Of a DNA stretch of 64,000 nucleotides, positions 8,382 to 56,290 are shown piece by piece (position 1 is the stretch's first letter; each line of letters opens with the position of its first letter). This DNA comes from Anaerolineae bacterium (GTDB taxonomy: Bacteria; Chloroflexota; Anaerolineae; UBA1429), in contig OY776562.1 in assembly GCA_963675785.1 (NCBI GenBank), forward strand, positions 1,632,001 through 1,696,000. Direction: 5' to 3'. Position numbers and translations under genes: made by a program. A model generated the notes under the pieces. The model did no database searches, was not told the origin of the DNA, and worked only from the letters and a program-made list of their open reading frames with translations.

Positions 8382-8601
8382 CCCATAGCCACATCGTATT
8401 TGCCCTTCTCCCTCCTACACCTTTTGGAAAAAAATCAACGCACCATCCCGGCCAGCAAGTTAACAACTTGTTGGCCGTTGTTTACGTCCATCCCTACCAA
8501 CAGCACCAAAAGAAAAAGGCGAAATATGAGTAAACGGATGAGGGCCTCATGCAATCAGAGTGAACAGCCTCCTGCATTTTCTACAGGTGCAGTATGAAAC
8601 G

Positions 8602-8647
8602 TTGACAGGCTGTCTCGCAGGTCATAGACTCGTGAATGGTCACTCAC
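8602..8647 (+). promoter_or_regulatory. Sigma70-type promoter with adjacent imperfect palindrome (putative repressor operator)
   Basis: TTGACA(8602-07)-17 bp-TAGACT(8625-30); GTGAATGGTCACTCAC (8632-47). Confidence 0.55.
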
Positions 8648-8701
8648 AATCGACGTTCAAGCCTATAGCGCATTTACATGCACTGAGAGAGCATCCAGAT
8701 C

Positions 8702-10488: not shown

Positions 10489-10694
10489 CGATGACAAACT
10501 GAGGTGAGAGATCAGACGCAGGGCACCTGCTGTATAAAAACCCTTCACTTTCAAAAAATGGCTAGCTTGTTCGAAGGATGCTAGTTAATAGCTAGACCAC
10601 CCATCGGCCCTACCAACGTAGATTCTGCCTTGTTTCTCTCCTGGCCTTGAGATAGAATAGAATGAAATTACCTCAACGTTGAGGGGGCCATTCT

Positions 10695-13355: not shown

Positions 13356-13553
13356 ATATGTGATGCAGCGAGAGCCCCCGATTCTTCAGTCACAATGCCT
13401 GAAAGCTCGGGAGCTCTTGTGTGACTGAAGCGATGATAAAGGCGACAGATAACAGTGTAAGAGACTCTAGCAATGCTATTCACGTCGTTCTATTGATTCG
13501 AGTCGGGAGAATATGCAAGATCTTTATAATGGGATCGTCAAGGAGGCTGCACA

Positions 13554-40986: not shown

Positions 40987-40988
40987 AC

Positions 40989-41025
40989 AACAAGCCCGGG
41001 ACACACGCTCCGGGCTTGTTCTTTT
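40989..41025 (+). terminator. Terminator hairpin, related in sequence to the hairpin at 45059-45082
   Basis: AACAAGCCCGG-gacacacgct-CCGGGCTTGTTCTTTT. Confidence 0.75.
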
Positions 41026-41034
41026 GGAGAATTG

Positions 41035-41574
41035 ATGAAACTATTGCACCCCATCGAGACTGAACGGCTGATCATCCGCCGCTTTGTGCCCGAAGATTGG
41101 CAGGACCTATACGCGTATCTCTCGGATGAGCGCGTGGTGCGCTATGAGCGCTATGGTCCCTTTAGCCGTGAGGCCGCCCAACGAGAGGCCGCCCGTCGGG
41201 CCGAAAGCGACGAATTCCTGGCCGTGTGCCTCAAAGAGTCGGGTAAGCTGATCGGCAACCTTTACCTGGGCGTGCGCGAATACGAGACGCTGGAGCTGGG
41301 GTATGTGTTCAACGCCGCCTATTGGCATCAGGGATATGCCACTGAGAGCGCCAGGGCCGCCATGGATTATGCTTTTACCACCGGCGCCGCTCGGCGCATT
41401 GTGGCCATGTGTAATCCCGAGAACGCCGCCTCATGGCACTTGATGGAACGGCTGCACATGCGCCGCGAGGGCCATTTGCGGCAGAATATCTATTTCGAGG
41501 TGGACGAGAACCAGCAGCCCATTTGGATCGATACGTTCATCTATGCGGTGTTGGCTTCAGAGTGGGGGAAGTGA
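41035..41574 (+). CDS. GNAT acetyltransferase, RimJ/RimL family
   Basis: IETERL.IR, ELGY...WHQGYATE, N.AS..LMERL.MRREG. Confidence 0.92.
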   Translation: MKLLHPIETERLIIRRFVPEDWQDLYAYLSDERVVRYERYGPFSREAAQREAARRAESDEFLAVCLKESGKLIGNLYLGVREYETLELGYVFNAAYWHQGYATESARAAMDYAFTTGAARRIVAMCNPENAASWHLMERLHMRREGHLRQNIYFEVDENQQPIWIDTFIYAVLASEWGK

Positions 41575-41638
41575 AAGAAAGAGAATAAAAAGAACAAATG
41601 ACTTGGGGAGACAGCGCCATCAAACCACAAGCAATGGC

Positions 41639-44600
41639 TTATGATTCTTTTGGCAGATAAATCAAAGAACAACGACAGAATGATGCGAATATGCCAAAAA
41701 GCTTTTTCCAGTTGATTTCCAACTCTGCCATTTTCATGAAACGAGGAAAGTTGCCCAAAAAGCAATGCCAATCACCAAAATGGTCGGATCTAGGAATGCA
41801 AGCATACATAGCAGTATGAAGAATACTCTTTGTCCCTCTCGCCAGTTCTTTAGCTGGATAATGCTCGTATAATGCCATATCAGGAAACGACGAGTACCAC
41901 TCGTCTGTATATCTGGATATCTCCACGGCTGAAAGGTTTTGGCTAATAATATAGTCAAGATCCTGGGAATGAATAAAGCCGTTTCTAAACGGTGCAAACT
42001 CCTCATCATCAGTATCAACCAGATCATGATTAGAAGCATTCGTATATATACAACCCTCAACAATGTTGTCATACTCTTGCGGAACGCCGGTAATGTGAAT
42101 CTCTCTTTCTATAAGGGCTTGCTTGAACAATTCTGAATAATCAGAAAGTAAAATACCTTTTACATCATAAAAGTCTATGCTTTTCGAATGCCAATAAGTA
42201 GACAGATAACTACGTATCTCTTTAGTAATATCTTCTTTAAGAAGACTATTGAGTTTTTCAGGTCTTAGTTCAAAAAAGCTGATATGTTTAGAGTCATAAT
42301 CAACACTATGGAAGTATCGGACAAAAAAGACATCACTTTTCCTATTGAGATATGAATTTAAAAGTAACCTTATGCCCTTTTCGGATTGATCCATTAGAGC
42401 AGAGAGCACTTTTGGGGATGTCTTTTCTTCGATTACACCAACTTCTTCAAATGTCAGTAATGCTTCCGCCATGGTCGAGACGGAGTAGTCCTTTCTGTTG
42501 AAATACATAAAAAAGTATTTCCAGACAGATAAGATATCAGTTTCACTATCACTGTGATTTACGTATCGCAGAAAAGCCAAGACGCGTTCACAAGTCTCAA
42601 AGGATCCTTGCGAAGCACTATCCTCAATGACGTCGAGAAGAGTTTTATCAGAAAATTCGGACGTATATCCGAGGGAAGATAAGGTTAAATAAAGCTCCTG
42701 GAAAAGTCTAGAACACATAACCTCCGGCAAATATAGTTCACGTCGATAGTACGCTAGAAGATGAGCGGGAGCGAAATCACCTCTACAAGAGACGATTTTG
42801 CATATGTCCTCATACAAAGGACTATCACTAATTTTATGTATATAAATATAAGAAAACGCAACTAGATGGGAATTATAAAAGACTTCATAAGATGTGTTTT
42901 TCAGATTTATTCCATGAAGTTGTTGATCAAGTGATTCCCAGTTTCCCCAATCAAGCTCTTCGATATTGAGAAATGTAGTTTCCTGCGTAACAGCCTTCTT
43001 AAAATCCCGCTCCGCTTTTTCTACATCATAATATGTTCTGCTGTAGGACTGTCGATAGTACTGGCTGTTCTTATGGAGGCGTGCCCGATAAGCCCCCCAA
43101 ATGAAACCCGTACTGAAGATACTGTCAATCGTGATGCCGTGCTTGTGCCAATACTCCGTAATATGAAACCAGAGACGCTCTGATCCCGCAAAGTCATGTC
43201 GTTCGGTGATAAGGCAAATAAGAATGAACGCATAATACTGATAATAATCCAGCAGTTTCTCAGACATGTGAGAAAAACGTTTTTTTAACTGCCAATAGAA
43301 TTCCTTGACAGATTCAAAGTCATAGTTTTCATCAAGTAGCTTTTTAAATACATCGAAATCAGCGTATTTTTGAAGCACCTTCGCCACAAAATCATCATCG
43401 AAATCAAATCCACTGAATCGTGAAAGATACTCTATTTCCCTGCTCAAGATGCTATCTTGAATTTGATCTATAACTTGCGAATGATCTACCACACAATTAG
43501 GCTGCCCGAGAAGATACGTATTCAAACTATCATGTATCAATGAAACACGTTTTTCATTGATCTCGAATAGATAGGGATGCTTTTTGATGAATTCCTCTAC
43601 CAGAAAAGCTGCCAATTCATGGTTCAGCAAATCGTGTATCTCTTTATATGTAAAGTAAAATCTATTAGTACTAAACAAGCTCAATGCTTTACTAATACCA
43701 TCAAATTGCATCAATGAATCGTAATAGGCATTTATGCTGTCTATTTTTTGATCAACTGCTATTTCATGATATATTATATAGTGTTCTGCTAAATAATTCG
43801 TAATAATTGGATATCCATCAGCGATTTCATATATCCTTGCTGCGGCATCAGGATCAATTTCCTTATATTCGACAAGAAACTTGAAAGTTTCACTTCTTCC
43901 CCAATTTACCAGCGTTCTTCGCTTCCATGATATCTTGCGCCTGAGTGGACGTGTTAGAACAACAACTCTGGCTTCTTGGAGCTTATCCACAAATGCAAAA
44001 TAGCGATCTAGCTCATAGCACCGATAATTCTCGATATGATCCAAACCATCTATGAAAAGAGTCAGGGTCTTATCATTGATTTCTTCTATGAGTTCATCTT
44101 CAGTAAACTCTTTGGGGGAATGAAATACTTTTTTGCAAAGATCCCTGATAAATTCAGAATATTCCAGACGATCGGATGCATTAGGATCCTGCGACCCTAT
44201 CCAAAATCTATATACGATAGCATTGGGATATGCTTCAACAAGCTCGTTCACAAAATGGCTTTTCCCAACTCCAGGCTTTCCAATAATGCAAAGAACACCC
44301 TTCTCAGGAATAGCCGTATCATGATTTACATCGAAAGTGCCCTCTGATAGAATCGCAGAAAATGCCTTTACAAATGGCAGATCATCTCTTATTACTTTGC
44401 AATTGCCATTCGAACAACATGTATGGGCGAACGAGATAATGTGGCTAATCCTTTCAGAGCTGGGATACATTTCTGTGATTTTCCGTTCAATCACGTCAGG
44501 GCTCAAAGGAACAACATAAACACCTTCTTTTAGTTTTTTTGCATTCAGGCCCAAGATCACATCCTGACATTCATCAAGTGGTATGCAATCGGTGTTAATC

Positions 44601-44887
44601 ACAGCTATGCTTGTCTTATCTCCGGCAATACGACTACAACTGCCTTTTACACTAAGAACTCCTTGTTCAGAAAGCTTGATTTCCTCAAGCGAGGTACCGG
44701 GGTAATCTTTGACCTGAAAACAATAATCGCCACCGGTATTTGTAAGACACACATCATCAAAATTATGTGCAGCGTCAAATTCGGCATCGATAGAGGTAAC
44801 ATTAGTTTCACAATCCATTATTGCCAAGAGCAAGCAATAAACTTGAACCTGATAAGCATATCCCTTGAATGCAAATAAGGCAGCCAT
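41639..44887 (-). CDS. Large P-loop (STAND/NACHT-like) ATPase with N-terminal PD-(D/E)xK-like domain; candidate anti-phage protein
   Basis: KGYAYQ...FDDV...FQVK N-terminus; GKPGVGKS Walker A; LFIDGLDH Walker B; VLTR; GYP; HDSL; visibly AT-rich relative to flanks. Confidence 0.75.
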   Translation of the reverse strand: MAALFAFKGYAYQVQVYCLLLAIMDCETNVTSIDAEFDAAHNFDDVCLTNTGGDYCFQVKDYPGTSLEEIKLSEQGVLSVKGSCSRIAGDKTSIAVINTDCIPLDECQDVILGLNAKKLKEGVYVVPLSPDVIERKITEMYPSSERISHIISFAHTCCSNGNCKVIRDDLPFVKAFSAILSEGTFDVNHDTAIPEKGVLCIIGKPGVGKSHFVNELVEAYPNAIVYRFWIGSQDPNASDRLEYSEFIRDLCKKVFHSPKEFTEDELIEEINDKTLTLFIDGLDHIENYRCYELDRYFAFVDKLQEARVVVLTRPLRRKISWKRRTLVNWGRSETFKFLVEYKEIDPDAAARIYEIADGYPIITNYLAEHYIIYHEIAVDQKIDSINAYYDSLMQFDGISKALSLFSTNRFYFTYKEIHDLLNHELAAFLVEEFIKKHPYLFEINEKRVSLIHDSLNTYLLGQPNCVVDHSQVIDQIQDSILSREIEYLSRFSGFDFDDDFVAKVLQKYADFDVFKKLLDENYDFESVKEFYWQLKKRFSHMSEKLLDYYQYYAFILICLITERHDFAGSERLWFHITEYWHKHGITIDSIFSTGFIWGAYRARLHKNSQYYRQSYSRTYYDVEKAERDFKKAVTQETTFLNIEELDWGNWESLDQQLHGINLKNTSYEVFYNSHLVAFSYIYIHKISDSPLYEDICKIVSCRGDFAPAHLLAYYRRELYLPEVMCSRLFQELYLTLSSLGYTSEFSDKTLLDVIEDSASQGSFETCERVLAFLRYVNHSDSETDILSVWKYFFMYFNRKDYSVSTMAEALLTFEEVGVIEEKTSPKVLSALMDQSEKGIRLLLNSYLNRKSDVFFVRYFHSVDYDSKHISFFELRPEKLNSLLKEDITKEIRSYLSTYWHSKSIDFYDVKGILLSDYSELFKQALIEREIHITGVPQEYDNIVEGCIYTNASNHDLVDTDDEEFAPFRNGFIHSQDLDYIISQNLSAVEISRYTDEWYSSFPDMALYEHYPAKELARGTKSILHTAMYACIPRSDHFGDWHCFLGNFPRFMKMAELEINWKKLFGIFASFCRCSLIYLPKES

Positions 44888-45058
44888 TATGTCCCTCACA
44901 AACTAGTCGATGTCTTTGCAATAAACGAACAGGAACTCGATATCGCAGCAGAATCATATGATTTATGACAACCCAGTAGCGCACTTACTATAGCGGTTTA
45001 TTAACGGCAATGCCACCCTTTTTCCTTACTCTCACGCACCTGCCAAACGCTAAAGCAA

Positions 45059-45744: not shown

Positions 45745-46110
45745 CTACTCTTTCTTGCCCTCACGCACCCATTCCTTATGCAGTGCATCGCGGGAGGTAG
45801 AGGCGGGCTCATAGCGGGCCTCCAGGCGGATGGCGCCGTGACGGCAAGAGGCCTCGCACTGGCCGCAAGAAGCGCAGGTATCAGCATCATAGCGCATACG
45901 CAGGCCACCATCGGGCAGACGTTCCAACACCAGGCTGCCAGCTGGACAATCGCGAACACAGAGGCTACAGCCAGTGCATTTATTTATGTCAACTACTACC
46001 CGGCCACGGTAACTGTCGGGCACCACGCCCATTACCTCCAGCCCCACAGCTTCACGCGGGGCCCGCGAACGGCGCAGCACGTGGCGCAGCAAATAGATGC
46101 GCTTGGGCAT
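45745..46110 (-). CDS. NuoI/EchF-like 2x[4Fe-4S] subunit
   Basis: YRG, CTGCSLCVRDCP, CASCGQCEASC. Confidence 0.9.
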   Translation of the reverse strand: MPKRIYLLRHVLRRSRAPREAVGLEVMGVVPDSYRGRVVVDINKCTGCSLCVRDCPAGSLVLERLPDGGLRMRYDADTCASCGQCEASCRHGAIRLEARYEPASTSRDALHKEWVREGKKE

Positions 46111-47036
46111 TAGAGCCTCCCCATCCACACAGTAAAGAGCATCTGGGCCAGGCCAGCAGGCACCAAATACAGCCAGCCAAAGGCCGCCATCTGGTCAATG
46201 CGCACCCGAGCGAACAACACTTGCACCAGGGCCAGCATGGTCACCATAAGTGCTGCCTTGAGGCCATAGGCCGCAAACCCGGCCAAACCCACAAAGGGAG
46301 CTCCCCCACCCAAATAGACCGCCACCAGCAAATTGACGCCCACCAACGTTTGCATCATGACGGTGAGCTTCCACAAGGCCAGCTTGCGGCCGCTGTATTC
46401 AGTGAGCGGGCCAGCGCCCACCTCTGATTTGGCGTGGGGGATATCAAAGGGCACCCGTTTGAGCTTGCCGATGAGCCCGACGACCGACACCATAAAGCCC
46501 ACAGGCTGCCAGAACACGCTCCAGCCCCCCTGCGCCTGTGCCGAAACCAGCCCCATAATGCTCCAGCAGCGCGTCAGCAGGGCCGGCGCGGTCAGTCCCA
46601 GCAGCAGGGGCACTTCGTAGGAGAAATATTGCAACAGCGAGCGGTTGCCACCCAGCGCGCCAAAAAAGCTGGGCGCGGTCCATCCAGCCATGAAATAGCC
46701 CAGCGTAGGGATGCTCAGCAGGAACAACACCACGATGAGGTCGGCCTCAAAATCGGCTGCGGCCCAATCGCCCACGGGTACATAGAGCGCCGCGGTGAGC
46801 ACCGAGGCGATGGAGACGATGGGCAGCACGGCGCTCAGGGCGGCGTCGGCCCCACGAATGGTGATGTCCTCCTTGGCGAACAGCTTGATGATGTCGGCCA
46901 GGGGCTGGTAGACGGGCGGGCCCACCCGACCCTGGAACAGCGCTACCAGCTTGCGATCCAGCCAGTGCACCAACAACGAGGCCGCCAGCACGTACAGCAG
47001 CCCGGGGAACACCAGCACATGGAACAAGGTCGTCAT
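46110..47036 (-). CDS. NuoH/EchB-like membrane subunit
   Basis: DRKL.A..QGRVGPP.YQP.AD..KL..KE, SYEVP, R.PFD, TEYSG, R.RIDQ. Confidence 0.92.
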   Translation of the reverse strand: MTTLFHVLVFPGLLYVLAASLLVHWLDRKLVALFQGRVGPPVYQPLADIIKLFAKEDITIRGADAALSAVLPIVSIASVLTAALYVPVGDWAAADFEADLIVVLFLLSIPTLGYFMAGWTAPSFFGALGGNRSLLQYFSYEVPLLLGLTAPALLTRCWSIMGLVSAQAQGGWSVFWQPVGFMVSVVGLIGKLKRVPFDIPHAKSEVGAGPLTEYSGRKLALWKLTVMMQTLVGVNLLVAVYLGGGAPFVGLAGFAAYGLKAALMVTMLALVQVLFARVRIDQMAAFGWLYLVPAGLAQMLFTVWMGRL

Positions 47037-47072
47037 CAAGAACTCCTATCAGGGAGATCAGGATCTCCGATC

Positions 47073-48155
47073 TCAGCGGTCAGCACAAGCGATACACAAG
47101 TCGGCCCCGGCAATCACCGCGGCTACATCGGCGGTCTGCACGCCCGAAAGCAAGTGCGGCAGGCTGGCCAGGGTGGGCAAGGTTGGCGTGCGCACTTTGA
47201 CCCGCGCTGGCGTATCAGAGCCATCCGAACGCACATAGTAAAACAGCTCGCCGCGCGGCGCCTCTATGCGCGTGGTCACCTCGCCAGCGGGCACCCGCCG
47301 AGGAGCGCGCACTTGCACTTCACCCTCGGGCAGGCCGTCTAATATCTGATGGACGATTTTCAAGCTCTCGTCGATCTCGGCCAGACGCGTATGCGCCCGG
47401 CACCATACATCGCCGCCGGTGCCGGTAATCACTTGGAAATCCATTTCCTCATAGGCCAGGTAAGGCTGTTGTTTGCGGATATCCAGCGTGCAGCCCGAAG
47501 CGCGCGCCGTGGGGCCTACCAGGCCAAGTCGGTGCACCAGATCGCCGCCCATCACCCCCAGTCGGCGGGTTCGGGCCTGAAAATTGCGGTCGTGCAGCAC
47601 CATATCGCGAAACAGCTTGAGCTGCTCCTCAAACTCGGCCAAGTTGGTTTGTACATAGCGCTCGTGGTCGGGTGTCAGATCGATGCGCACCCCGCCGATG
47701 GAGGTAGCCGAATGGGACACGCGTCCGCCGGAGAGATCCTCCATCAGGTCGAGGATGATCTCGCGGTCGCGCCAGGCGTACATGAAAATAGTGGTAAAGC
47801 CAATGGCCTCGGAAAGCACGCCCAACCAGAGCAGGTGGCTGTGGATGCGCTCTAATTCGCAAAGCAACATGCGAATGTATTGGGCACGGCGCGGCACCTC
47901 GATACCGGCCAGCTTTTCCACCGAGAGGCAAAAGGTGGTGGTGTGGGCTTGCGAACAAATACCGCAAACACGCTCGACCAGGTGCACATTCTGAATATAA
48001 GTGCGCTGCTGGGCCAGCTTTTCGATGCCGCGATGCACATAGCCGATGCGCAGATCGGCGCCCAACACGGTCTCGCCAGATACGCTCAGGTTGATGGAAA
48101 GGGGTTCTTTGAGCAAGGGATGTTGCGGCCCGATGGGGATACGAGTCGGCGTCAT
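47073..48155 (-). CDS. Group 4 [NiFe]-hydrogenase large subunit (NuoD/EchE-like)
   Basis: GPQHP, GYVHRGIEK, L1 ERVCGICS.AH, ELERIHSHL, EAPRGE, RTPT, L2 DLCIACADR-stop. Confidence 0.92.
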   Translation of the reverse strand: MTPTRIPIGPQHPLLKEPLSINLSVSGETVLGADLRIGYVHRGIEKLAQQRTYIQNVHLVERVCGICSQAHTTTFCLSVEKLAGIEVPRRAQYIRMLLCELERIHSHLLWLGVLSEAIGFTTIFMYAWRDREIILDLMEDLSGGRVSHSATSIGGVRIDLTPDHERYVQTNLAEFEEQLKLFRDMVLHDRNFQARTRRLGVMGGDLVHRLGLVGPTARASGCTLDIRKQQPYLAYEEMDFQVITGTGGDVWCRAHTRLAEIDESLKIVHQILDGLPEGEVQVRAPRRVPAGEVTTRIEAPRGELFYYVRSDGSDTPARVKVRTPTLPTLASLPHLLSGVQTADVAAVIAGADLCIACADR

Positions 48156-48589
48156 GCGTTCTCCTCCTCATTCAACAAAGGCGGTGGTCCCTGCCAGTCG
48201 TCGGGCAACAGCAGCGGCTTGATCTCCCCCCGGCCCTCGATGGTGACGCCCAGCATCTCGTGCACCTCGCGCTCGTACCAGTTGGCTACCAGCATAATCG
48301 GGGTCAGGCTGGGTACGCTCAGATCATCCATCGGCAGCAACAGGCGCAGGGTAATGCCACAGCCGCCGTAAAAGTGGTACATCAGTGAGACGCCCTGGGG
48401 CAGGCGTTGGCCAGTGATGGTGGTCAAGTGGTGCACATCTGCCGCCACCAGGGCTCGCGCCGCCTCGATCAGATTCTCACGGGGCAGGTCATAGCAAATC
48501 TCGTTCTGGGGGCCCTCACCGCGTTGGGCACCGCATTCAACAAGCGCAGTGTCGATGGCGGCGAGATCAGCAGAAAGCAGATCATCCAT
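48152..48589 (-). CDS. NuoC/EchD-like subunit
   Basis: L.TITG, YHF, VPSL......ANWYEREVHEMLG....G, LLLPDDW...PPL. Confidence 0.9.
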   Translation of the reverse strand: MDDLLSADLAAIDTALVECGAQRGEGPQNEICYDLPRENLIEAARALVAADVHHLTTITGQRLPQGVSLMYHFYGGCGITLRLLLPMDDLSVPSLTPIMLVANWYEREVHEMLGVTIEGRGEIKPLLLPDDWQGPPPLLNEEENA

Positions 48590-49008
48590 CAGATACCCTC
48601 CAACAGTTGGGAAATGGCCTCGATGACGGCCTCGGGGCGTGGCGGGCAGCCGGGAACATACAAGGCCACCGGCACCACCTGATCGATACCGCCCAGCACG
48701 TTATAGCTGGCCTGCACAATGCCACCCGAACAGGCGCAAGCGCCAATGGCCACCACCCAACGCGGCTCGGCCATCTGCTCGTAAATGCGCCGTAGCGGGC
48801 GCGCTGACTGGCGCGTCACCGGCCCGGTGGTCAGCAGAATGTCGGCGTGACGCGGCGAGGCCTCTTTGAGGATTCCCAGCCGCTCAATGTCATAGCGGGG
48901 CGTCAGCAAGTCGAGAATCTCGATATCGCAGCCGTTACAGCCGCCGGTGTTGTAATGCAGCACCCAGGGCGATTTACGCCGCGCCCAGCGCACCACGCGG
49001 TCGATCAT
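48589..49008 (-). CDS. NuoB/EchC-like hydrogenase small subunit
   Basis: GGCNGCDIE (hydrogenase-type CxxC, not the NuoB tandem CC), SPRHAD, GACACSGG, VPGCPPRP. Confidence 0.93.
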   Translation of the reverse strand: MIDRVVRWARRKSPWVLHYNTGGCNGCDIEILDLLTPRYDIERLGILKEASPRHADILLTTGPVTRQSARPLRRIYEQMAEPRWVVAIGACACSGGIVQASYNVLGGIDQVVPVALYVPGCPPRPEAVIEAISQLLEGI

Positions 49009-49343
49009 GATTCCTCTCCCTCGTGGGTTAGTACGTCCACGCAAAGCCCGGTGCCCAGCAAAAAGGCCGCTGCCAGCACCCAGGCGTTGCCCTCCAGGGG
49101 CAGCATAGCTACCACCAGTGCGGCCATGTGTACCACCACAAACATCAAACCCAGCCTGAAATAACGTTGGTAAGAGAGCTCCATCTCCTCAGGCACTAAC
49201 TCTTGCCCCCCGGCGTAAGGCTCTATCTTGCCAGGTTCATCATCTCGACCGCGAGGGGCGATCCTGCCGGACCAGCGATAGAGGCCATAGGCCAACAATC
49301 CGAAAAGGGCCAGCGCCAGTGGGGGGCTTGTCAACCAATCCAT
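49005..49343 (-). CDS. NuoA-like membrane subunit
   Basis: 3 TM helices with K.EPYAGG loop (cf. NuoA K..PYECG) and Y..YF motif; directly precedes the NuoB-like gene. Confidence 0.8.
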   Translation of the reverse strand: MDWLTSPPLALALFGLLAYGLYRWSGRIAPRGRDDEPGKIEPYAGGQELVPEEMELSYQRYFRLGLMFVVVHMAALVVAMLPLEGNAWVLAAAFLLGTGLCVDVLTHEGEES

Positions 49344-49344
49344 G

Positions 49345-50787
49345 TCAACCTCCCAAGGCCAACAAGGAGGCAGCTGCTTTCGTAGCAGCTACCATCACCG
49401 GGGTGGGCCAGACGCCCATCCCCAAGGCCATAACCGCCATTAGCACCATGGGCACCAGCATCCAGGCGGAAACAGGAGCATGCGGCCCCTCAATGCGCTT
49501 GTGGGTGAGCAGTCGACCCACCAGGGGCACGTAATAGCCCAAGCTAAGCAGGCTGTTGAGCACAAAAAGCACCACCACCGTGCCACTCAGCCAATCCCAC
49601 TGGCGCAGACCGCCCTGCAAGAACAGCCACTTGCTGATAAAGCCGTTGAGTGGTGGCACACCGGCCAGCCCCAGCAATGCCACAGTGAACACTACCGTCG
49701 TGGCCGGTGCGCGGTCCATCAACCCGTCCAGATCAGAGAGCATGGTGCTATCCATGTAATAGTGACAAACGCCTTTGCTGAGAAAAGCCAGCCCCTTGAG
49801 CAGCGCGTGGGCGGCAATGAGGTAAAAAGCCGCGGCCAGCATCTCCACATGCCCGCTGACCAAACCCAACCCCAGGGCCGCGGCCACATAGCCGGTCTGG
49901 GCAATGGAGGAATAGGCCAACATCCGCTTGCCGTAGGTTTGCACCAGGGCCATGCTGTTGCCCACCGTCATGTTGAGCACGCCCTCGACCACCAGCGCCC
50001 AACCCAAAATTCGCGGCTCAATGCCCAAGCCCAGCCCTACGCGCACCAACACCAGCAGATTGACCTGGATGAGCACACCAGAAAGTAGCGCGCTGATGCT
50101 GGATGGCGCTCGTCCATGAGCATCGGGTAACCAGGTGTGCGCTGGCACCAAGGCTGCCTTGACGGCGTAGCCGAGCATCATCAGCACGGCGCCAAACAGG
50201 CCCCAGGTGCCCATGGCAGCAGCACCACTAGTCAAAGCCAGGCTCCCCGACTGGCGATAGACATAGCCCAGGCCAAAGAGGATGAGCATGGCTGCAGATG
50301 AGCCCATGATGGCGTACTTGAAACCAGCCTCCACGGCGGTATCCGTGGTGCGGCGAAAGGCCACCAGCACATAAGAGCAGGCGCTGGCCAGAATGGTAGC
50401 CAGATAGAGCGTGAAGAGATCGACGGCGCAGAGCATGGCCAGCAGACCAGCGCACATCAGCAGCACCAGTGAATAGTAATAACGATAGCGCTTATCCTCC
50501 GACATATAGCGCCCCGAGTAGACGGAGATTAGCAGACCCAGGCCCAACACGATGACGCCCATAAAACGCGATACATCGTCTATAACAAAAGTGGCCGCCG
50601 TACCCTGGCTGGAGGTCCAAGCTAGGCCGTTTGTCCAGCCAAGCAGTAGGCGTCGCAAGGCCACAGCAAACACAGCGGCTGTAAGCAGGGCCATCAAGCC
50701 ATTACTGCTGATGAGGCGGCTGACGACATAGAGCGATACCGCGCCCAGCGCTAGTACGACCAGGGGAGCCAACAGGGGATCAGACAT
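49345..50787 (-). CDS. NuoN/MrpD-like antiporter-type subunit
   Basis: EAGFKY, K...VP.HTWLPDAH..AP, KR.LAYSSIAQ.GY, GVPPLNGFISK. Confidence 0.9.
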   Translation of the reverse strand: MSDPLLAPLVVLALGAVSLYVVSRLISSNGLMALLTAAVFAVALRRLLLGWTNGLAWTSSQGTAATFVIDDVSRFMGVIVLGLGLLISVYSGRYMSEDKRYRYYYSLVLLMCAGLLAMLCAVDLFTLYLATILASACSYVLVAFRRTTDTAVEAGFKYAIMGSSAAMLILFGLGYVYRQSGSLALTSGAAAMGTWGLFGAVLMMLGYAVKAALVPAHTWLPDAHGRAPSSISALLSGVLIQVNLLVLVRVGLGLGIEPRILGWALVVEGVLNMTVGNSMALVQTYGKRMLAYSSIAQTGYVAAALGLGLVSGHVEMLAAAFYLIAAHALLKGLAFLSKGVCHYYMDSTMLSDLDGLMDRAPATTVVFTVALLGLAGVPPLNGFISKWLFLQGGLRQWDWLSGTVVVLFVLNSLLSLGYYVPLVGRLLTHKRIEGPHAPVSAWMLVPMVLMAVMALGMGVWPTPVMVAATKAAASLLALGG

Positions 50788-50788
50788 G

Positions 50789-52234
50789 CTAGGCACCTCC
50801 GGGAATGAGCAATCCGGCGGCGGCACTGCCCCAGCCATAGAGCAGGCCGGGAAACAACCCCAGTATGAGCACCAGCAGCACAGCCGCCGCAGTAGACCAA
50901 CGCATGGCCGCTGGCACCTGTTGTACGGCCATATCCAGCGGGGCTTGGCCGCTGTTTACGCGCACAACAAGCCATACCGCGTACATGGTCGTAGCCAGCG
51001 GTGCCAACAGTTCCAGCACGGCCAACAAGCTATAGGGCGCAGCAAACCCGGCCAGGATGATTTGCAATTCGCCGTAAAAGGCGGCAAAGGGCGGTAGCCC
51101 GGCAATAGCCATGGCGCCCAGTGCCAACCAAAGGCCAGCCCCGGGCAATACCCGGGCCAGTCCACGAATCCGCTCAATATTGCGCCGCGAGGTGGCCAGC
51201 ATGATCCAGCCCACGGCCATAAACAGCGCTGCTTTGATCAAGCCGTGGGTAACCACCTGCATCACGGCGCCGGTCAGGCCGGCCTCACTCAGCGTACCGA
51301 TGGCAAAGAGCACATAGCCCATCTGGCTGACGCTGGAATAAGCGACGATGCGTTTGATGTCGTGTGAAGAGATGGCCATCAGGGCGCCGTATATCTGTGA
51401 CACCAAACCGGCGATCATCAGCGGCACTTGCAAGGGCTGTAATGCCGCCACGCCCAAAATGCCCACGGCAAAACGCATCATGCCATAGGCACCCATGCTG
51501 AGCATAGCCCCAGCCAACATCACCGTCACCGGCATGGGAGCGATCGAGTGGGCATCGGGCAGCCAGGTGTGCAATGGAAAGACTGCCAACTTGACGCCAA
51601 AGCCCAACACCAACAAACCAGCCAACCAAGTGAGCGTCGTGGCAGGAATTCCTGCCGCCATAGCCTGGCCAGTCATATCGGTGGTACCAGAGTGAACCGC
51701 CATATAAGCCAGCACGCCCAGCACCGTCAGCGAGCCAAGCTGGGTATAGAGCACGTACTTGAACGTAATGCGCCCAACCTGCTCGCCACTGCCCCACCAC
51801 AAGAGCAATAAGCTGGAGGCTACCAGCATGAGTTCCCAAAAGAGGAAAAAGACCAGCGCATCGTGGGCCAACACGGTGCCCACCATACTGCCGCAAAAGG
51901 CAGCCATGAGCGCATAGACGACGTGCCCGCGTGGAAAGCTTTGTAAATAGCCCAGACCGTACAGGCTGGCCAACAGTGTTACGCTCAGCACGGTGATGGC
52001 AAAAGGCCGGGCCAGGGCATCCAGCACCAGGCTAAAGGATGGCCCGTTCTGAATCCAAGGCAGTGAGAAGGAGCTTGCAGGTGCGACAATCACTAAAACG
52101 AGGGTAGCTCCCACAGCGGTACAGGTCGCCACACCGGCGATGCGCGTCCGCTTGGTCAGCCGCGCGGGCAAGACGAAACTGATCAGGCTTGCCGCCCAGG
52201 GCAGTATCAGAATGAGAGCGAGCATCCAGGGCAA
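50789..52234 (-). CDS. NuoM-like antiporter-type subunit
   Basis: FFLFWELML, KY.LYT..GS, VK...FPLHTWLPDAH..AP, DIKRIVAYSSVSQMG, GLP....F.GE. Confidence 0.9.
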   Translation of the reverse strand: MPWMLALILILPWAASLISFVLPARLTKRTRIAGVATCTAVGATLVLVIVAPASSFSLPWIQNGPSFSLVLDALARPFAITVLSVTLLASLYGLGYLQSFPRGHVVYALMAAFCGSMVGTVLAHDALVFFLFWELMLVASSLLLLWWGSGEQVGRITFKYVLYTQLGSLTVLGVLAYMAVHSGTTDMTGQAMAAGIPATTLTWLAGLLVLGFGVKLAVFPLHTWLPDAHSIAPMPVTVMLAGAMLSMGAYGMMRFAVGILGVAALQPLQVPLMIAGLVSQIYGALMAISSHDIKRIVAYSSVSQMGYVLFAIGTLSEAGLTGAVMQVVTHGLIKAALFMAVGWIMLATSRRNIERIRGLARVLPGAGLWLALGAMAIAGLPPFAAFYGELQIILAGFAAPYSLLAVLELLAPLATTMYAVWLVVRVNSGQAPLDMAVQQVPAAMRWSTAAAVLLVLILGLFPGLLYGWGSAAAGLLIPGGA

Positions 52235-52244
52235 GGTTAGCCTC

Positions 52245-53558
52245 CTACAATAACGAAAATACAGCAACAAAAGCCAGCGCTAGTACAATCAGGCCGGCCA
52301 TCCAGGCCAGATTGGCCCGCAGCTTGCCCGTGTGCAGGCGGCGCAAACGGCGCCCTACCTCCAATGCTGAACGCTGTACATTGACAAAACCCTTTTCAAG
52401 GACATGCTCATCGATGGCGCTGGCCGCACGCGAGGCGCTCTCGGTCAAATGCCAAACCCAGGCATTGAGTGGCTCTAGCAGCCGCGTCTCGACGAATAAG
52501 GCCGCAATCGAAAGCCTATCCCATCTTGTGTTCAATGGGGCGTTATCAGCGTATTCGCCCCGAGCCTCGTCCACAACTCTTGGGGCAGACAGGATCATCA
52601 ATACCCCTCGCAGCGGCATGAAAGAATAGAGATAGGCATATGGCCAGCCCAGAGGCACAATCACCAGCGCAAGCGCCCCATGTGCTACTTCCAAATGGTG
52701 CAAGCGCAACCTGCTTTCGGCTCGAACAGCGCAAATCAGAGCCCAGATCATGATTCCGGCACCGGCCACAACCAAAGGAGTCGTCAGGTGCAGTGCCTGA
52801 ATGCCGCCCTCCAAACGATAGAGCAAATAGGCGCCCAACAGAGGTAGGCCCGCCGTAGCCGCCGACCATCGTTCAGGGCTAGCGATCTCGCCTGCAACGG
52901 CTAACCAGCGATCAAATGGATAGAGGCCCAGCTTGATCCACACTGCCAACAGGCCCATCAGTACTGCCAGCCAGGTGGTACCATCGGCTGCCTGGGCAGC
53001 GGCAGCCAACATGGGGGAGATGAGCAGCGTGTCGTGGGCCTGCCAGAGCACGATGATAGCCCCCAGCAAAGCCAGATCGCCCAAACGCAAAGTGAGAAAA
53101 GAGCCGACTAGATCGCGCCAATTGCCGCGACGTACCGTCATAACCAGCGTGGCCAAAGCAGCCGCCTCCAGAAAGGCATAGCGGTAGAGAAAATGGTTGA
53201 CGTTCAGCGCAGCAAAAGAGGCAGCCAGCAAGATCGGTGCAGCCAAAGCCTGCCACCAGGCCGACGCAGGTTGATCGGCATCTTGCCAAAGCAGCAGGGC
53301 ATAGCCCAGAATGGCCAGCCCGCTCAACTCGGTGCCGCGCTCATCCAGGGCAATCACTCCCGGCTCGATCCAGGGAATCCAGCCCAGATTGATCGTTGAA
53401 GCATCGCGGTGAACTAGGGCCACCAACGCAGCCAAAGCAACAGCTACCGCCACCATACGCAATAGCCGCGCGCGTTTGGCTGTAACCGGAGCAGGCAAGG
53501 TACGCAGCAGTCCTCCTGCCAAAGCCAGTGCCAGCGTTGCCATGATGAAATAGATCAT
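52245..53558 (-). CDS. Shortened, degenerate NuoL/MrpA-like subunit
   Basis: LRLGD, IKLGLYPF..WL, GAYLLYR; C-terminal amphipathic helix and LRRLHTGKL..NL.W TM as in the NuoL tail. Confidence 0.78.
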   Translation of the reverse strand: MIYFIMATLALALAGGLLRTLPAPVTAKRARLLRMVAVAVALAALVALVHRDASTINLGWIPWIEPGVIALDERGTELSGLAILGYALLLWQDADQPASAWWQALAAPILLAASFAALNVNHFLYRYAFLEAAALATLVMTVRRGNWRDLVGSFLTLRLGDLALLGAIIVLWQAHDTLLISPMLAAAAQAADGTTWLAVLMGLLAVWIKLGLYPFDRWLAVAGEIASPERWSAATAGLPLLGAYLLYRLEGGIQALHLTTPLVVAGAGIMIWALICAVRAESRLRLHHLEVAHGALALVIVPLGWPYAYLYSFMPLRGVLMILSAPRVVDEARGEYADNAPLNTRWDRLSIAALFVETRLLEPLNAWVWHLTESASRAASAIDEHVLEKGFVNVQRSALEVGRRLRRLHTGKLRANLAWMAGLIVLALAFVAVFSLL

Positions 53559-53878
53559 CCGCGTAGCGTCCTGAGGTCATCCACCTCACCAGAGGGGAAA
53601 TAGCGCAAAGCGTTGATAGTAAGCGCTAGAACGATGGCCAACACGATGGTCTCGGCCACCAAGGCAGAGACCACCAGACTTTGCACTAACTCCAAGTCGC
53701 CCTGTACGCGGGCGGCATCCACAAAGTTGAGCAGGGCGCCCTGCAACATGATGTTGAGACCGATGACCTGTTTGAGCAGACGACGACAGGTAAGAAGACA
53801 GAGGAAGCCAATCAAGATCAGCGCAGCAGAGAGTAACGGGTTGACGATATCTAGCAGAGGATCGGGTAAAGACTGCAT
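53555..53878 (-). CDS. NuoK/MrpC-like subunit
   Basis: 3 TM; LLK.VIGL.IM, AE..V.A..LAL, DDLRTLRG C-terminus. Confidence 0.85.
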   Translation of the reverse strand: MQSLPDPLLDIVNPLLSAALILIGFLCLLTCRRLLKQVIGLNIMLQGALLNFVDAARVQGDLELVQSLVVSALVAETIVLAIVLALTINALRYFPSGEVDDLRTLRG

Positions 53879-53881
53879 GAT

Positions 53882-54112
53882 CTAACTCTCCTCGTCACGG
53901 CCGGGCAGCAAAGCGCGAATGCCCAAGGCCCCGGCAAACATGAGAGCCAACTGAAACAAGAGATCGGGCTGGCGGGATGTCCAGAGGGTGAAAAAGGAGG
54001 CTTCTTCACTCGAGGATTTTTCTCCCAGTAAAATGTAAAGGCCTGCCCCAAGCACCAGCAAAAGGATCACGCCGGTTCTGCCCAGAAGCAGGTCAATGAG
54101 TTTGGACTTCAT
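53882..54112 (-). CDS. Small membrane protein, probable C-terminal half of a split NuoJ
   Basis: 2 TM, LW..R..DLL.Q...MFAGALG...L; position between the NuoJ-N and NuoK homologs. Confidence 0.65.
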   Translation of the reverse strand: MKSKLIDLLLGRTGVILLLVLGAGLYILLGEKSSSEEASFFTLWTSRQPDLLFQLALMFAGALGIRALLPGRDEES

Positions 54113-54138
54113 CGTCTCCCCACAGTTTTATGGCCGGG

Positions 54139-54420
54139 TTAAACCCCGGGGCTATTGTCACGGGTCTCTTGTTTGCGCCGTTTGCCGATGGATTCGGCCA
54201 AGCTAAGAGCGATGATAAAAAGCGTGCTCACCAATCCAGCGCCCACAGAAAGCTGAATAGCAGCAGCATAAGGCGCCTGCAGTAGGTAGAACATCAAAGC
54301 CAAGCCGCTGCTGGCCACAATGAGAGCCCCAGCTGCTCGGATGAGTTCCCTGGTACGAACGGCTACAATCGCCGCCGTCAGGACAAGTGCTGCTGCTACC
54401 AGATATGCTGTCGTCATCAC
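54139..54420 (-). CDS. NuoJ N-terminal-like (DUF4040/MrpB-type) membrane subunit
   Basis: LIRAA.AL......LA..FY.L.APY.A.IQL.VGAG. Confidence 0.8.
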   Translation of the reverse strand: MMTTAYLVAAALVLTAAIVAVRTRELIRAAGALIVASSGLALMFYLLQAPYAAAIQLSVGAGLVSTLFIIALSLAESIGKRRKQETRDNSPGV

Positions 54421-54566: not shown

Positions 54567-55346
54567 CTATCTACAACAGAGTGTGCCTTCACGGGGACAG
54601 GCGCCGGTGCATTCCATGCAGCGAATGCATTCCATGCTGCGCTCTACCTCGGTAGATGGGTCAATATCCATGGGACAGATGGCTTCACAACGCCCGCAAG
54701 AGACACAACTGGTCTCATCGGCCTTGATGCGCCAACGAGAGAATAAGTTGGTGACGGAGAGCACCGCCCCCAGAGGACAAGCATAGCGGCACCAAAAACG
54801 CTCAATAGCGATGGACCAAATCAGGAATACGACGACCACGCCAGCACCCAGGGCACTGCCTACATTCATGGTGAACAAGGTACGGTAGGGACAAAAGGCC
54901 ATGAGGGGCGGCACCACAGCGGTGATGCTGGCATAGATCACCCAGCCCAGCACCAGCCACTTGACCCAGCGCATAGGACGGTCGAGCCAACGCGGCAGAT
55001 GAATGGGCAACCAGTGCTTGCGCCCACCGGTAATGCGCCGCAAAAAGCGGCTAATCCAACCCTGTACCGTGCCCAAGGGGCAAAACCAACCACAGAACAC
55101 CCGACCAAAGAGAACCCCAGAGATCAACACTAGCCCCAGCAACACCAAATTGATGATGCTGGTATAGCGTAAAACGGTGCCTGAAGTAAGAAAAGTTGAG
55201 ATCAACTCAATGCCACCCATGGCGCAAATGGCGTCAAAGGAAGCAATGAGCCCCAGTGAAAAGGCTATGCCGATGCCGATGGCAATGAGTAAGCCAATAC
55301 CCTGCGAGATGCGGCGGTAGATCTGAAGGCGATTCTTGGCCGCCAT
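54567..55346 (-). CDS. NapH/MauN-like membrane polyferredoxin (4Fe-4S binding protein)
   Basis: GRVFCGWFCPLG, FCP, ERFWCRYACPLG, CVSCGRCEAICP, CIRCMECTGACP. Confidence 0.92.
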   Translation of the reverse strand: MAAKNRLQIYRRISQGIGLLIAIGIGIAFSLGLIASFDAICAMGGIELISTFLTSGTVLRYTSIINLVLLGLVLISGVLFGRVFCGWFCPLGTVQGWISRFLRRITGGRKHWLPIHLPRWLDRPMRWVKWLVLGWVIYASITAVVPPLMAFCPYRTLFTMNVGSALGAGVVVVFLIWSIAIERFWCRYACPLGAVLSVTNLFSRWRIKADETSCVSCGRCEAICPMDIDPSTEVERSMECIRCMECTGACPREGTLCCR

Positions 55347-56173
55347 CAGTGACTGCCCCTGCCGGAGCCACTGGAAGAACTGGAAAGCTGCTCATAGAGT
55401 GCGGGCTCGGAGTAATCACAATAGCCATTGCCGTTGGAATCGACATAGTCATGGCACAAGCCGGGATAAGGATCCCAAACCTGCCCTTTGGGACAGGCTA
55501 CTTGCCCAGTGACGCTGGTATCGACGGTGGAATCGGATGTCACAGCAGGCACGGCGGTTGCCGTCGCTGTTGCGACCGCAGTTGTGGCCGTTTCCTCGAT
55601 CAAAGTATCTGATGATTCTTCGGGCTCAGACAGGTCGCAAATGGCGTTGTTGTTCAGATCGCAATAGCGATTGCACTGACCCGGGAAGGGATCATTCAAT
55701 ATGCCAAAAGGACAAGCAACCACAACAGCAGCAGTCGCCGTTGCTTCGGCGGTAGCCTCAGCAGTTGCGGATGATTCTGTTGTTGCATCCGGTGTAGCCG
55801 TGGCCATTGAATCAGCCGCAGGTTCGGAATAGTCGCAATAGCCGCTGCCGGTGGTATCCACGTAATTGAGGCACTGGCCGGGGTAGGCATCGTACTGTAA
55901 TCCAAAGGGGCAAGTGGAGACGAAACTGGAATCCACAGTTACCGTTGCAACAGCCGCTGCCGCAGCCGTCGTGGCGCTGGATGATTCTATGCGGTCGCAC
56001 AATGCGTTGCCATTGGCATCGTAACAGGCAGCACAGGGGCCAGTGCAAATGCCATCAGCCGAAATGGGGCAATCGCTCACGATGTAAAGTCCACCCATGG
56101 CTCCGGTAGCAACCACGCCTCCGGCAAGCACCAGGAACTGTCGGCGGTCGAGTTTTCGTTTCTTGGGGACCAT
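55346..56173 (-). CDS. Tat-signal protein with three CPxG..D(P)YPGxC..Y.D..G.G.CD.SEP repeats
   Basis: DRRQFL twin-arginine motif plus hydrophobic stretch; repeats separated by Thr/Ala linkers; coupled to the NapH-like gene (TGATG). Confidence 0.82.
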   Translation of the reverse strand: MVPKKRKLDRRQFLVLAGGVVATGAMGGLYIVSDCPISADGICTGPCAACYDANGNALCDRIESSSATTAAAAAVATVTVDSSFVSTCPFGLQYDAYPGQCLNYVDTTGSGYCDYSEPAADSMATATPDATTESSATAEATAEATATAAVVVACPFGILNDPFPGQCNRYCDLNNNAICDLSEPEESSDTLIEETATTAVATATATAVPAVTSDSTVDTSVTGQVACPKGQVWDPYPGLCHDYVDSNGNGYCDYSEPALYEQLSSSSSGSGRGSH

Positions 56174-56290
56174 TATACCCTTCCTGTGTATGGTTGGATA
56201 AAGCATATTAGATGACTATAGTATAAGGAATAAATGTTCGTGAAATGTTAAGAGTCAATCAGGATGTTGCATAGTTAAAGCTGTTCTTAC

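Follow-up and report, generated by a model that had tools for sequence, protein, structure and literature searches.

We examined a 64,000-nucleotide stretch of a genome from an Anaerolineae bacterium (assembly GCA_963675785.1, contig OY776562.1, positions 1,632,001 to 1,696,000; hereafter the window) that carries a 12-gene operon on its minus strand, spanning positions 54420 to 45745, with the gene order J1-J2-K-L'(X)-M-N-A-B-C-D-H-I. Our favored interpretation, held with moderate confidence, is that these genes encode a ferredoxin-dependent, energy-converting group 4 [NiFe] hydrogenase that combines the 11-subunit gene set of respiratory complex I with a remodeled ion path, and that this enzyme would move fewer ions per H2 formed. 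A preliminary description of this DNA had pointed to a systematic loss of canonical charged residues in the membrane arm between positions 46110 and 53878. The loss itself is borne out below, but that interval is only a part of the operon.

All 12 reading frames of the operon are open. The genes are listed here in operon order, with profile scores in brackets (aa, amino acids; TM, transmembrane helix; ORF, open reading frame).

J1, 54139-54420, minus strand: N-terminal NuoJ/MbhD-like protein, 93 aa, TM1-3 (PF00499, 1.2e-10; PF13244 MbhD, 8.2e-9)
J2, 53882-54112, minus strand: two-helix small membrane protein, 76 aa, in the mbhE position and present in 46 orthologous loci
K-like, 53555-53878, minus strand: NuoK/MbhG/MrpC-like protein, 107 aa (PF00420, 3.9e-13)
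X or L' (L-like), 52245-53558, minus strand: degenerate NuoL/MrpA-like antiporter-like subunit, 437 aa (weak PF00361, 1.1e-6)
M-like, 50789-52270, minus strand: antiporter-like subunit, 493 aa as the longest ORF, versus 481 aa for the matching database cluster representative (TIGR01972 NDH_I_M, 277.8 bits, cut-off 263.8)
N-like (MbhH-like), 49345-50838, minus strand: antiporter-like subunit, 497 aa
A-like, 49005-49343, minus strand: NuoA/ND3-like protein, 112 aa, 3 TM, assigned by family profile and gene position
B-like, 48589-49044, minus strand: NuoB/MbhJ-like small subunit with a CxxC...C...C pattern (PF01058, 6.6e-33)
C-like, 48152-48589, minus strand: NuoC/MbhK-like protein, 145 aa (PF00329, 3.7e-21)
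D-like, 47073-48155, minus strand: [NiFe] hydrogenase large subunit, NuoD/MbhL-like, 360 aa (PF00346, 5.7e-72; PF00374 NiFeSe_Hases, 4.2e-16)
H-like, 46110-47039, minus strand: NuoH/ND1-like membrane anchor, 309 aa (PF00146, 3.6e-71)
I-like, 45745-46128, minus strand: NuoI/MbhN-like 2x[4Fe-4S] ferredoxin-type protein, 127 aa (Fer4_7, 4e-12, and other Fer4 families; NCBIfam PRK08348, 9.5e-15; TIGR01971 NuoI, 2.9e-12)

Catalytic core, subunit set and operon family

A scan of species-representative genomes for the D-like protein matched 207 stretches, 118 of which encode a relative, and the best 80 loci were kept. The ortholog residue counts given below are drawn from these loci and leave the window itself out. 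Every one of the 80 loci is titled Chloroflexota, Anaerolineae or a genus thereof, with 52-70% identity in the D-like protein, and within this sample the operon family is confined to Anaerolineae/Chloroflexota. The gene order J1-J2-K-X-M-N-A-B-C-D-H-I is identical in all 46 loci that reach far enough for it to be read, and the nearest match of the N-like protein is 53% identical.

The D-like protein carries RVCGICS near its N-terminus and DLCIACADR at its C-terminus, and has no C-terminal extension. Its four NiFe cysteines align with those of MbhL from the membrane-bound hydrogenase (MBH) of P. furiosus and are each present in 74 of 75 orthologs, and a glutamate equivalent to MbhL E21 is found in 73 of the 75. 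MbhL is also the nearest chain in the PDB (6CFW_L, 3.3e-81), followed by Nqo4 (3.6e-69). In the B-like protein, residues C36, C39, C103 and C133, which from their motif pattern are presumably the ligands of the proximal [4Fe-4S] cluster, are each conserved in 73 of 73 orthologs. The features of group 4 [NiFe] hydrogenases found in the operon are both CxxC pairs, the four-cysteine small subunit, a NuoH-like anchor and antiporter-like subunits. No gene for NuoE, NuoF or NuoG is present in the operon, and ferredoxin probably delivers its electrons to the I-like subunit.

The genome (3.22 Mb in a single contig, 94.84% complete) has no other PF00346 locus, and the operon holds its only three PF00361 genes, making this the only system of the complex I/Mrp type that the genome contains. 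Genes for the maturation proteins HypD (480.7 bits) and HypF (765.2 bits) were found, as were two further NiFe hydrogenases. A search of the genome for a HycI-type protease gave no match, in keeping with the missing C-terminal extension of the large subunit.

Profiles from Pfam and NCBIfam together identify 10 of the 12 gene products, and all 11 core subunit types of complex I (NuoA, B, C, D, H, I, J, K, L, M and N) appear to be represented. This set is best read with three reservations in mind, namely that NuoJ seems to be split with only its first piece recognizable, that the NuoL homolog is degenerate, and that NuoA is identified by profile only. The A-like protein taken as a single sequence gave no match in Pfam, NCBIfam or the PDB (to E 10), and its family profile matches E. 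coli NuoA with an hhalign probability of 59% (E 9e-5). J2 gave no match in a Pfam search. We had considered J2 as the C-terminal half of NuoJ, and this label was dropped when hhalign returned a probability of 0.5% against E. coli NuoJ.

The similarity of the individual subunits to solved structures forms a mosaic. The N-like protein, like the D-like protein, is nearest to MBH (MbhH, 6CFW_H, 2.1e-55, versus 2e-29 for NuoN), and the K-like protein matches MbhG (6CFW_G, 5e-7) ahead of Nqo11 (4HE8_K, 4e-5). The M-like protein is nearest to NdhD (6TJV_D, 4.6e-53) and then NuoM (1e-46), and the H-like protein ranks the known chains in the order NdhA (1.5e-38), Nqo8 (1.3e-30), NuoH (2.4e-30), MbsM (5e-29), MbhM (8e-23) and HycD (8e-15).

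Residues of the ion path and their conservation

Six substitutions had been proposed from the translations by eye, and all six are present and withstand alignment by MAFFT with E. coli and the orthologs, by HMMER against PDB chains, and by hhalign for family profiles. E. coli numbering was taken from the nuo genes of strain K-12, and NuoJ D79, NuoH E246 and NuoH D229 were excluded as mismatched. Of 34 canonical membrane positions tabulated in this way, 15 are non-conservatively changed in the window, and the conservation of the replacing residues across orthologs indicates that these changes are not chance drift. The substitutions had been characterized as mostly polar, a description that does not hold, since several of them swap a charge or introduce a new titratable residue (Glu to Lys, Asp to His).

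In the loop between TM5 and TM6 of the H-like protein, which reads PFDIPHAKSE, E216 is replaced by H202 and E218 by K204, and E220 is kept as E206, as judged by both MAFFT and HMMER alignment to NdhA (7eu3 and 6hum). Orthologs carry Lys (65), His (5), Ser (2), Asn (1) or a gap (1) at position 202 (n = 74), Lys at 204 in 72 of 74 and Glu at 206 in 73 of 74, such that the family pattern is Lys-x-Lys-x-Glu. E241 is further changed to Val and K303 to Leu. We also surveyed the nearest 150 of 5,245 matching 50%-identity cluster representatives, 114 of which have a readable PFD motif. The three glutamate positions read EEE in 62, HEE in 10, EDE in 8, EKE in 5, KKE in 3, HKE in 3 and otherwise in 23, and the third Glu is kept in 113. 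With 52 of the 114 departing from EEE, the first two loop glutamates evidently vary widely outside canonical complex I.

The A-like protein, in its VVHMA segment, has H72 in place of D79 and A74 in place of E81, and in a loop A44 in place of E51. The histidine is invariant (71 of 71 orthologs), and the position of E81 is occupied by Ala (52), Gly (9), Ser (5), Val (4) or Thr (1). In the K-like protein, the first Glu of the NuoK pair is changed (GLNIM, E36 to N42) and the second is kept as E76, which HMMER pairs with E72 of E. coli and E67 of T. thermophilus; MAFFT placed this second Glu three residues off, and the HMMER pairing was adopted. Position 42 is Lys in 43 of 47 orthologs (Asn in 2, Ser in 1, Arg in 1), and Glu at 76 is present in all 47. 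Aligned with E. coli NuoJ, J1 has Q56 in place of E55 and G60 in place of Y59. Orthologs have Glu (43) or Gln (3) at position 56 and exclusively Gly at 60 (46 of 46).

The M-like protein has lost the central Lys of TM8 (K265 to S258) and keeps E146, K227, H342, K346 and E401, with the same outcome when NdhD (6TJV) is used as the reference. No ortholog restores the lysine (Ser 48, Gly 4, Ala 3, Pro 2, Asn 1; n = 58). The best 120 of 4,629 matching database clusters, all of which are family members and provide no outgroup for the ancestral TM8 state, give a similar count (Ser 108, Gly 6, Ala 5, Pro 1, Lys 0). In the N-like protein, the TM5 Glu is replaced (E133 to I149), as is the TM8 Lys (K247 to Q258), and alignment with MbhH (6CFW, E143 and K256) agrees at both positions. 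Here the two positions behave differently among orthologs, with Glu in TM5 of 53 of 57, the four exceptions (Met, Gly, Val, Ala) being the nearest relatives of the window, and with Gln (31), Lys (17), a gap (5), Pro (2) or Glu (2) in TM8. The N-like protein keeps K227 in TM7, H344, K348 and K403 in TM12. As the preliminary description had noted, TM7 Lys and TM12 Glu/Lys persist in both proteins, and to these can be added the TM11 His/Lys. The TM7 Lys is invariant in all three antiporter-like subunits (M, 58 of 58; N, 57 of 57; X, 48 of 48).

The third antiporter-like subunit, X, keeps Glu131 in TM5, Asp161 and Lys209 in TM7, and is without the TM8 His/Lys and the TM12 Lys. Across orthologs, which range from 414 to 689 aa, K209, R126 and R158 are invariant, and E131, D161 and the C-terminal residues G411, L413, R414, L417 and W419 nearly so. 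An AlphaFold2 model (pLDDT 80.6) has MBS chain X (6U8Y_X), MrpD, NuoL and NdhF as its top Foldseek matches, with a TMq of about 0.6 over about 340 columns. Beyond approximately residue 340, the model contains low-confidence helices followed by a C-terminal TM helix that bears the conserved motif. In the model this end, with its conserved amphipathic and TM helices, looks like a lateral helix and the anchor that holds it.

A strain variant of this gene was also encountered. Contigs from sequencing run X9, otherwise 98-99% identical to the window, skip 78 nucleotides of X in frame at 52421-52500. The 26 codons concerned (approximately residues 353-379) lie in the low-confidence helical region, indicating that this region tolerates a change of length between close strains.

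When B, D and H sequences were concatenated and a FastTree phylogeny was rooted on E. coli, the window grouped monophyletically with L056, L005, L007, L004 and L010. With a fragment, L053, which has the H-like His, the subclade comprises six complete loci and this fragment, and the states listed here are common to them across approximately 50% protein divergence. The main clade has Glu56 in J1 (43 of 43), Lys42 in the K-like protein (43 of 44), Glu149 in the N-like protein (53 of 53) and Lys202 in the H-like protein (65 of 68), whereas the subclade has Gln in J1, Asn or Ser in K, Ile, Val, Gly, Ala or Met in N, and His or Asn in H. Also lost in the subclade are M-like R165, H177 and E302, which the main clade conserves. 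Gains in the subclade are Arg60 and Asp103 (TM3) of the A-like protein, each in 6 of 6 loci, together with J1 Arg22 and M-like His116, Glu420 and Arg457. The L-like gene is shorter in the subclade (414-533 aa versus approximately 450-690 aa in other loci). The N-like protein is not unusually diverged, its identity to the core group being 47.9% versus 40.0% for another clade.

These distributions separate substitutions of two ages. The A-like His, the H-like Lys204 and an M-like TM8 without Lys belong to a family-wide layer, and in this respect the originally flagged substitutions do recur in orthologs; the N-like TM5 change, the K-like change at position 42 and the J1 Gln56 do not recur outside the subclade and represent a later wave. 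In MBH, residues D37G, H41G, E69D, E143H and K225H form the O-site (PMC8679088). Considering this site and complex I together, in which NuoK, NuoJ and antiporter TM5-TM7 residues form one charged cluster, the three residues neutralized in the subclade are plausibly neighbors.

We calculated ratios of non-synonymous to synonymous substitution rates (dN/dS) by the Nei-Gojobori method (NG86) for 10 ortholog pairs with dS of approximately 0.1-1.4. Over nine subunits, membrane subunits included, the values range from 0.06 to 0.33, as follows.

J1: 0.06-0.23
K: 0.07-0.18
X: 0.12-0.33
M: 0.06-0.11
N: 0.07-0.22
A: 0.06-0.28
B: 0.06-0.22
D: 0.07-0.14
H: 0.06-0.15

The near-identical pair L039-L041 gave noisy values of up to 0.35. 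Pairs containing the window are saturated (dS of 0.85 to more than 2.5, or undefined) and were left out. In their place, contigs of near-identical DNA from public sequencing runs were aligned to the operon. Among the 40 of 238 differences listed, 34 are synonymous, 5 are non-synonymous and 1 is intergenic (with the A frame counted in the A/B overlap). These 40 leave all key residues untouched and include no indels or frame-breaking changes. Both comparisons point to purifying selection. Together with the intact frames, the 46 of 46 loci with identical order and the conserved replacing residues, they support the earlier suggestion that the operon has been rewired under selection rather than having decayed, as far as this can be judged from the genes.

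The A/B overlap presents a small annotation question. The longest B-like ORF begins at a TTG codon and overlaps the A-like gene by 40 nucleotides (49005-49044), and there is also an ATG at 49008 that forms ATGA with the A-like stop codon. Strains differ three times at 49029-49032, in each case synonymously in the A frame and non-synonymously in the extended B frame. From this pattern and the ATGA overlap, we conclude that the B-like start is probably at 49008, with translational coupling.

Coupling mechanism and competing explanations

In the scheme that we infer for electron donor, direction, coupling ion and stoichiometry, electrons would pass from reduced ferredoxin through the NuoI-like protein and the clusters of the NuoB-like protein to the NiFe site, where protons would be reduced. 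The small free energy of this reaction would be coupled to ion export via a remodeled E-channel and the M- and N-like subunits, with fewer ions moved per H2 than complex I's four. The E-channel would be rebuilt with mixed charges, consisting of the Lys-x-Lys-x-Glu loop of NuoH, the His of NuoA, the Lys and Glu of NuoK and the Glu of NuoJ. The central TM8 Lys is missing from the M-like protein and most N-like proteins, and the L-like protein is reduced to its first half plus the lateral helix and anchor. The subclade of the window would have gone one step further, with three charges at the J/K/N interface neutralized and Arg60 and Asp103 gained in the A-like protein. Energetic considerations are compatible with this scheme. 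MBH is reported to conserve approximately 12 kJ/mol per two electrons versus 42 for MBS (PMC8165549), from which four ions per H2 would not be expected.

Each known system resembles the window operon in part. The enzyme is like MBH (6CFW) in that its D-, N- and K-like proteins are closest to MbhL, MbhH and MbhG, in having the four NiFe cysteines and the site-adjacent Glu, and in having ferredoxin as the likely donor. Its genes J1-J2-K-(antiporter-like)-A-B-C-D-H-I are also colinear with mbhD-E-G-H-I-J-K-L-M-N, which we take to be the order of the mbh operon. In contrast to MBH, no MbhA-C-type Mrp module was found, as judged by MnhE and MnhG, which have no match in the genome, the operon beginning instead with J1 and having a NapH-like gene upstream. 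There are three antiporter-like subunits rather than one, the NuoH homolog is closer to NdhA/NuoH than to MbhM, the A-like protein is a three-TM NuoA-type protein, and the K-like protein has the NuoK-type TM3 Glu that is absent in MbhG. MbhH keeps E143 and K256 (PMC8679088), unlike the N-like protein of the window with its Ile and Gln.

Complex I and NDH-1 (6HUM, 6TJV) share with the window operon the 11 core subunit types, an H-like and an M-like protein nearest to NdhA and to NdhD/NuoM, what is modeled as an L-like C-terminal lateral helix with its anchor, and, for NDH-1, the absence of NuoEFG. They differ in that the NuoD homolog of the window keeps the NiFe ligands, and should thus reduce protons rather than quinone, that NuoJ is split and NuoL degenerate, and that NuoH E216/E218, NuoA D79/E81, NuoK E36, NuoJ Y59 and the TM8 Lys of M and N are all changed. 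The formate hydrogenlyase (FHL) complexes of E. coli offer further parallels. FHL-1 (Hyc, 7Z0S) is a group 4 NiFe enzyme that likewise lacks a canonical antiporter residue, HycC having Leu208 instead of the TM7 Lys (PMC9474812), and FHL-2 (Hyf) is described as having three antiporter-like subunits. However, HycD and HyfC retain the loop PFDxAEAEQE, and HycD ranks 31st of the 34 PDB sequences that match the H-like protein (8e-15). In FHL, moreover, the large subunit is a NuoCD-type fusion with a HycI-processed C-terminal extension, and a formate dehydrogenase and HycB are present; the window operon has none of these.

The Ehr, Hyq and MBS complexes have complex I-like membrane modules in which antiporter-like subunits vary in number, and Foldseek ranks MBS chain X first for the L-like model. 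The defining trait of these groups is that some or all NiFe cysteines are gone (PMC6349859, PMC8165549), whereas the window enzyme keeps all four. Moparthi & Hagerhall (2011, PMC3144371) postulated an 11-subunit, complex I-like ancestor with a NiFe site on NuoD, and stated that the compact 11-subunit enzymes known at that time all lacked the C-terminal Cys pair. The window operon has the composition of this postulated ancestor, although it encodes an extant enzyme whose remodeled residues may well be derived. In the literature, mostly open-access, leaving supplements aside, neither this operon type nor its substitutions were found described, and the excerpts of PMC3971608, PMC6349859, PMC8165549 and PMC11748557 do not describe it. 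The combination of NuoA His, NuoK Lys, NuoJ Gly and an M-like protein without TM8 Lys in a full complex I set was likewise not found elsewhere.

Other explanations for the altered membrane arm have to be weighed. It is doubtful, in our estimation, that the arm does not pump and serves solely to anchor the enzyme in the membrane and to deliver substrate protons to the NiFe site, a possibility debated for E. coli FHL-1. The absence of the central TM8 Lys from M and most N proteins would be expected of such an arm, as would an L-like subunit that is half-degenerate, fastest-evolving (24-54% identity, dN/dS up to 0.33) and subject to an in-frame 78-nucleotide skip in a close strain. FHL sets a precedent, having lost the canonical TM7 Lys and showing no clear path to the P side (PMC9474812). 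Against this reading, three large antiporter-like genes are kept in order, along with J1, J2, K and A, in all 46 loci that extend far enough, and the M- and N-like proteins have dN/dS (0.06-0.11 and 0.07-0.22) as low as that of the catalytic D-like subunit (0.07-0.14). An anchor would also hardly account for the invariance or near-invariance of the TM5 Glu, TM7 Lys, TM11 His/Lys and TM12 Glu/Lys. If the arm does translocate ions, it is unlikely that these are Na+, whether moved alone or, as has been put forward for P. furiosus MBH, in exchange for H+, with the altered residues forming a cation site. The kinship of the N-, K- and D-like proteins with MbhH, MbhG and MbhL speaks for this idea, as do the identity of Asn42 in the window with the aligned Asn of MbhG and an ATPase operon in the genome whose c subunit has E-S-T-x-x-Y plus a helix-1 Glu, a motif that we take to be Na+-binding. 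Yet the Na+ Mrp-type module of MBH is missing, with no match to MnhG (PF03334) or MnhE (PF01899) in the 94.84%-complete genome, where MrpF was not searched for. That ATPase operon has what we take to be the N-ATPase gene order and would export Na+ instead of serving as the main ATP synthase, and the c subunit of the genome's A/V-type ATPase reads GLGEGIA, without the E-T/E-S pair that we take to be a Na+ motif. In addition, O-site residues Asp37G and His41G of MBH (PMC8679088) align with Leu45 and approximately Ala49 of the window, and the Lys of the family lies three residues upstream. The lack of an Mrp EFG module and the character of the A/V-type c subunit lead us to favor, weakly, H+ as the most likely coupling ion.

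An enzyme that operates mainly in reverse seems improbable. In hydrogenases of the Eha/Ehb type, an ion gradient drives ferredoxin reduction by H2, and the path in the window enzyme could be tuned for inward flow in the same manner. Group 4 enzymes are reversible in principle, and the two further NiFe hydrogenases of this genome make H2 cycling possible. What argues against reversal is that the operon and its surroundings carry no sign of an anabolic demand for reduced ferredoxin, that the closest PDB chain to the D-like protein is MbhL, which evolves H2, and that cultured Anaerolineae are fermenters that release H2. That the substitutions mark a decaying, non-functional operon is barely credible. 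It is true that three more conserved charges are gone from the subclade and that its L-like gene is short (414-533 versus approximately 450-690 aa), but all 12 frames are open and the same states recur in six complete loci and a fragment at approximately 50% protein divergence. Moreover, the listed strain differences run 34 synonymous to 5 non-synonymous with no frame-breaking indels, divergence of the N-like protein is not elevated, and the losses are paired with conserved gains.

Several considerations weigh against the interpretation that we favor, a ferredoxin-dependent hydrogenase that exports fewer ions through a remodeled path. Activity and ion coupling are assigned from sequence for every member of the family, and no RNA sequencing runs covering 45745-54420 were found. 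J2 is left without a family label, a weakness of the putative complex I subunit set, and the A-like protein is equated with NuoA from the 59% hhalign probability and its gene position. The hyp genes could serve the two other NiFe hydrogenases instead. The membrane subunits might be arranged in the order of complex I or in the 180-degree-flipped order of MBH and FHL, and our mention of a J/K/N interface rests on homology. The change in the subclade is a single evolutionary event, and co-variation among its residues thus has no statistical weight. Finally, most mutations in the HycC axis of E. coli FHL left H2 production undiminished (PMC9474812), and therefore a conserved axis is no proof of pumping.

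We advance, tentatively, a more specific proposal. These operons may represent extant hydrogenases of complex I architecture that couple through a Lys/His/Glu E-channel and antiporter-like subunits without TM8 Lys, and the subclade may be a natural triple knock-out of NuoJ Glu, NuoK Lys and NuoN TM5 Glu that is rescued by new charges in NuoA. How redox chemistry at NuoD and NuoH reaches the distant antiporter-like subunits is debated for complex I, and the debate turns on residues that are changed here. The family is a widespread, selected natural variant in which the complex I subunit set is kept, E-channel acids are replaced by Lys or His, and the TM8 Lys is dropped in two of three antiporter-like subunits. 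Its main clade and nested subclade, with three more interfacial charges gone, form a comparative series for structure determination, simulation and measurement of stoichiometry. With a free energy from ferredoxin to H2 far below that from NADH to quinone, the family also offers a test of whether the number of active channels follows the energy available. If the proposal is true, the subclade shows which charges of the complex I coupling path are dispensable, and the composition postulated in 2011 for a common ancestor exists in extant enzymes. Public records, where they name the M-like protein, call it 'NADH-quinone oxidoreductase subunit M' (P0003, P0007, P0037 and others), and metagenomic surveys may consequently score an H2-evolving enzyme as complex I of Anaerolineae.

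Neighboring genes and genome context

One of the orthologous loci, L027 (CAZZEX010000066.1), has a second, more distantly related set of C-, D- and partial H-like genes approximately 5 kb past its H gene, the second D-like ORF being 666 aa long and 41% identical. Some Anaerolineae thus carry two complex I-like systems side by side.

Two ATPase operons were located elsewhere in the genome. The first, at approximately 260.9-267.3 kb, encodes beta, epsilon, a 95-aa protein with no assigned name, a, c, a b/delta fusion, alpha and gamma, and its c subunit contains ALLESTAIY (E-S-T-x-x-Y) plus a Glu in helix 1. We take this motif and gene order to be the Na+-binding signature and the arrangement of N-ATPases. 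The second, at approximately 431.9-440.5 kb, is a complete A/V-type operon with subunits D, B, A, E, F, c, I and C. Its c subunit (an ORF of 148 aa) reads GLGEGIAIYG, without the E-T/E-S pair presumed to mark Na+ binding, and this ATPase is probably the H+-coupled main ATP synthase.

Directly upstream of the hydrogenase operon, positions 54567-56206 on the minus strand encode a NapH-like membrane protein (Fer4_5, with ferredoxin motifs) and a cysteine-rich repeat protein with a Tat signal. Downstream, at 40001-44000, the G+C content drops to 0.464 versus 0.51-0.60 around it. This dip covers an ORF on the minus strand (41639-44899, 1086 aa) whose sole Pfam signal is a weak match to AAA_22, and the DNA may be recently acquired. 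At the far side of the window, positions 5541-16235 on the plus strand hold three large paralogous hybrid sensor kinases of 946, 886 and 893 aa. All three share MASE11, GAF, HisKA, HATPase and receiver domains, to which the first adds PAS, and an ABC-2 transporter pair separates the first from the other two.

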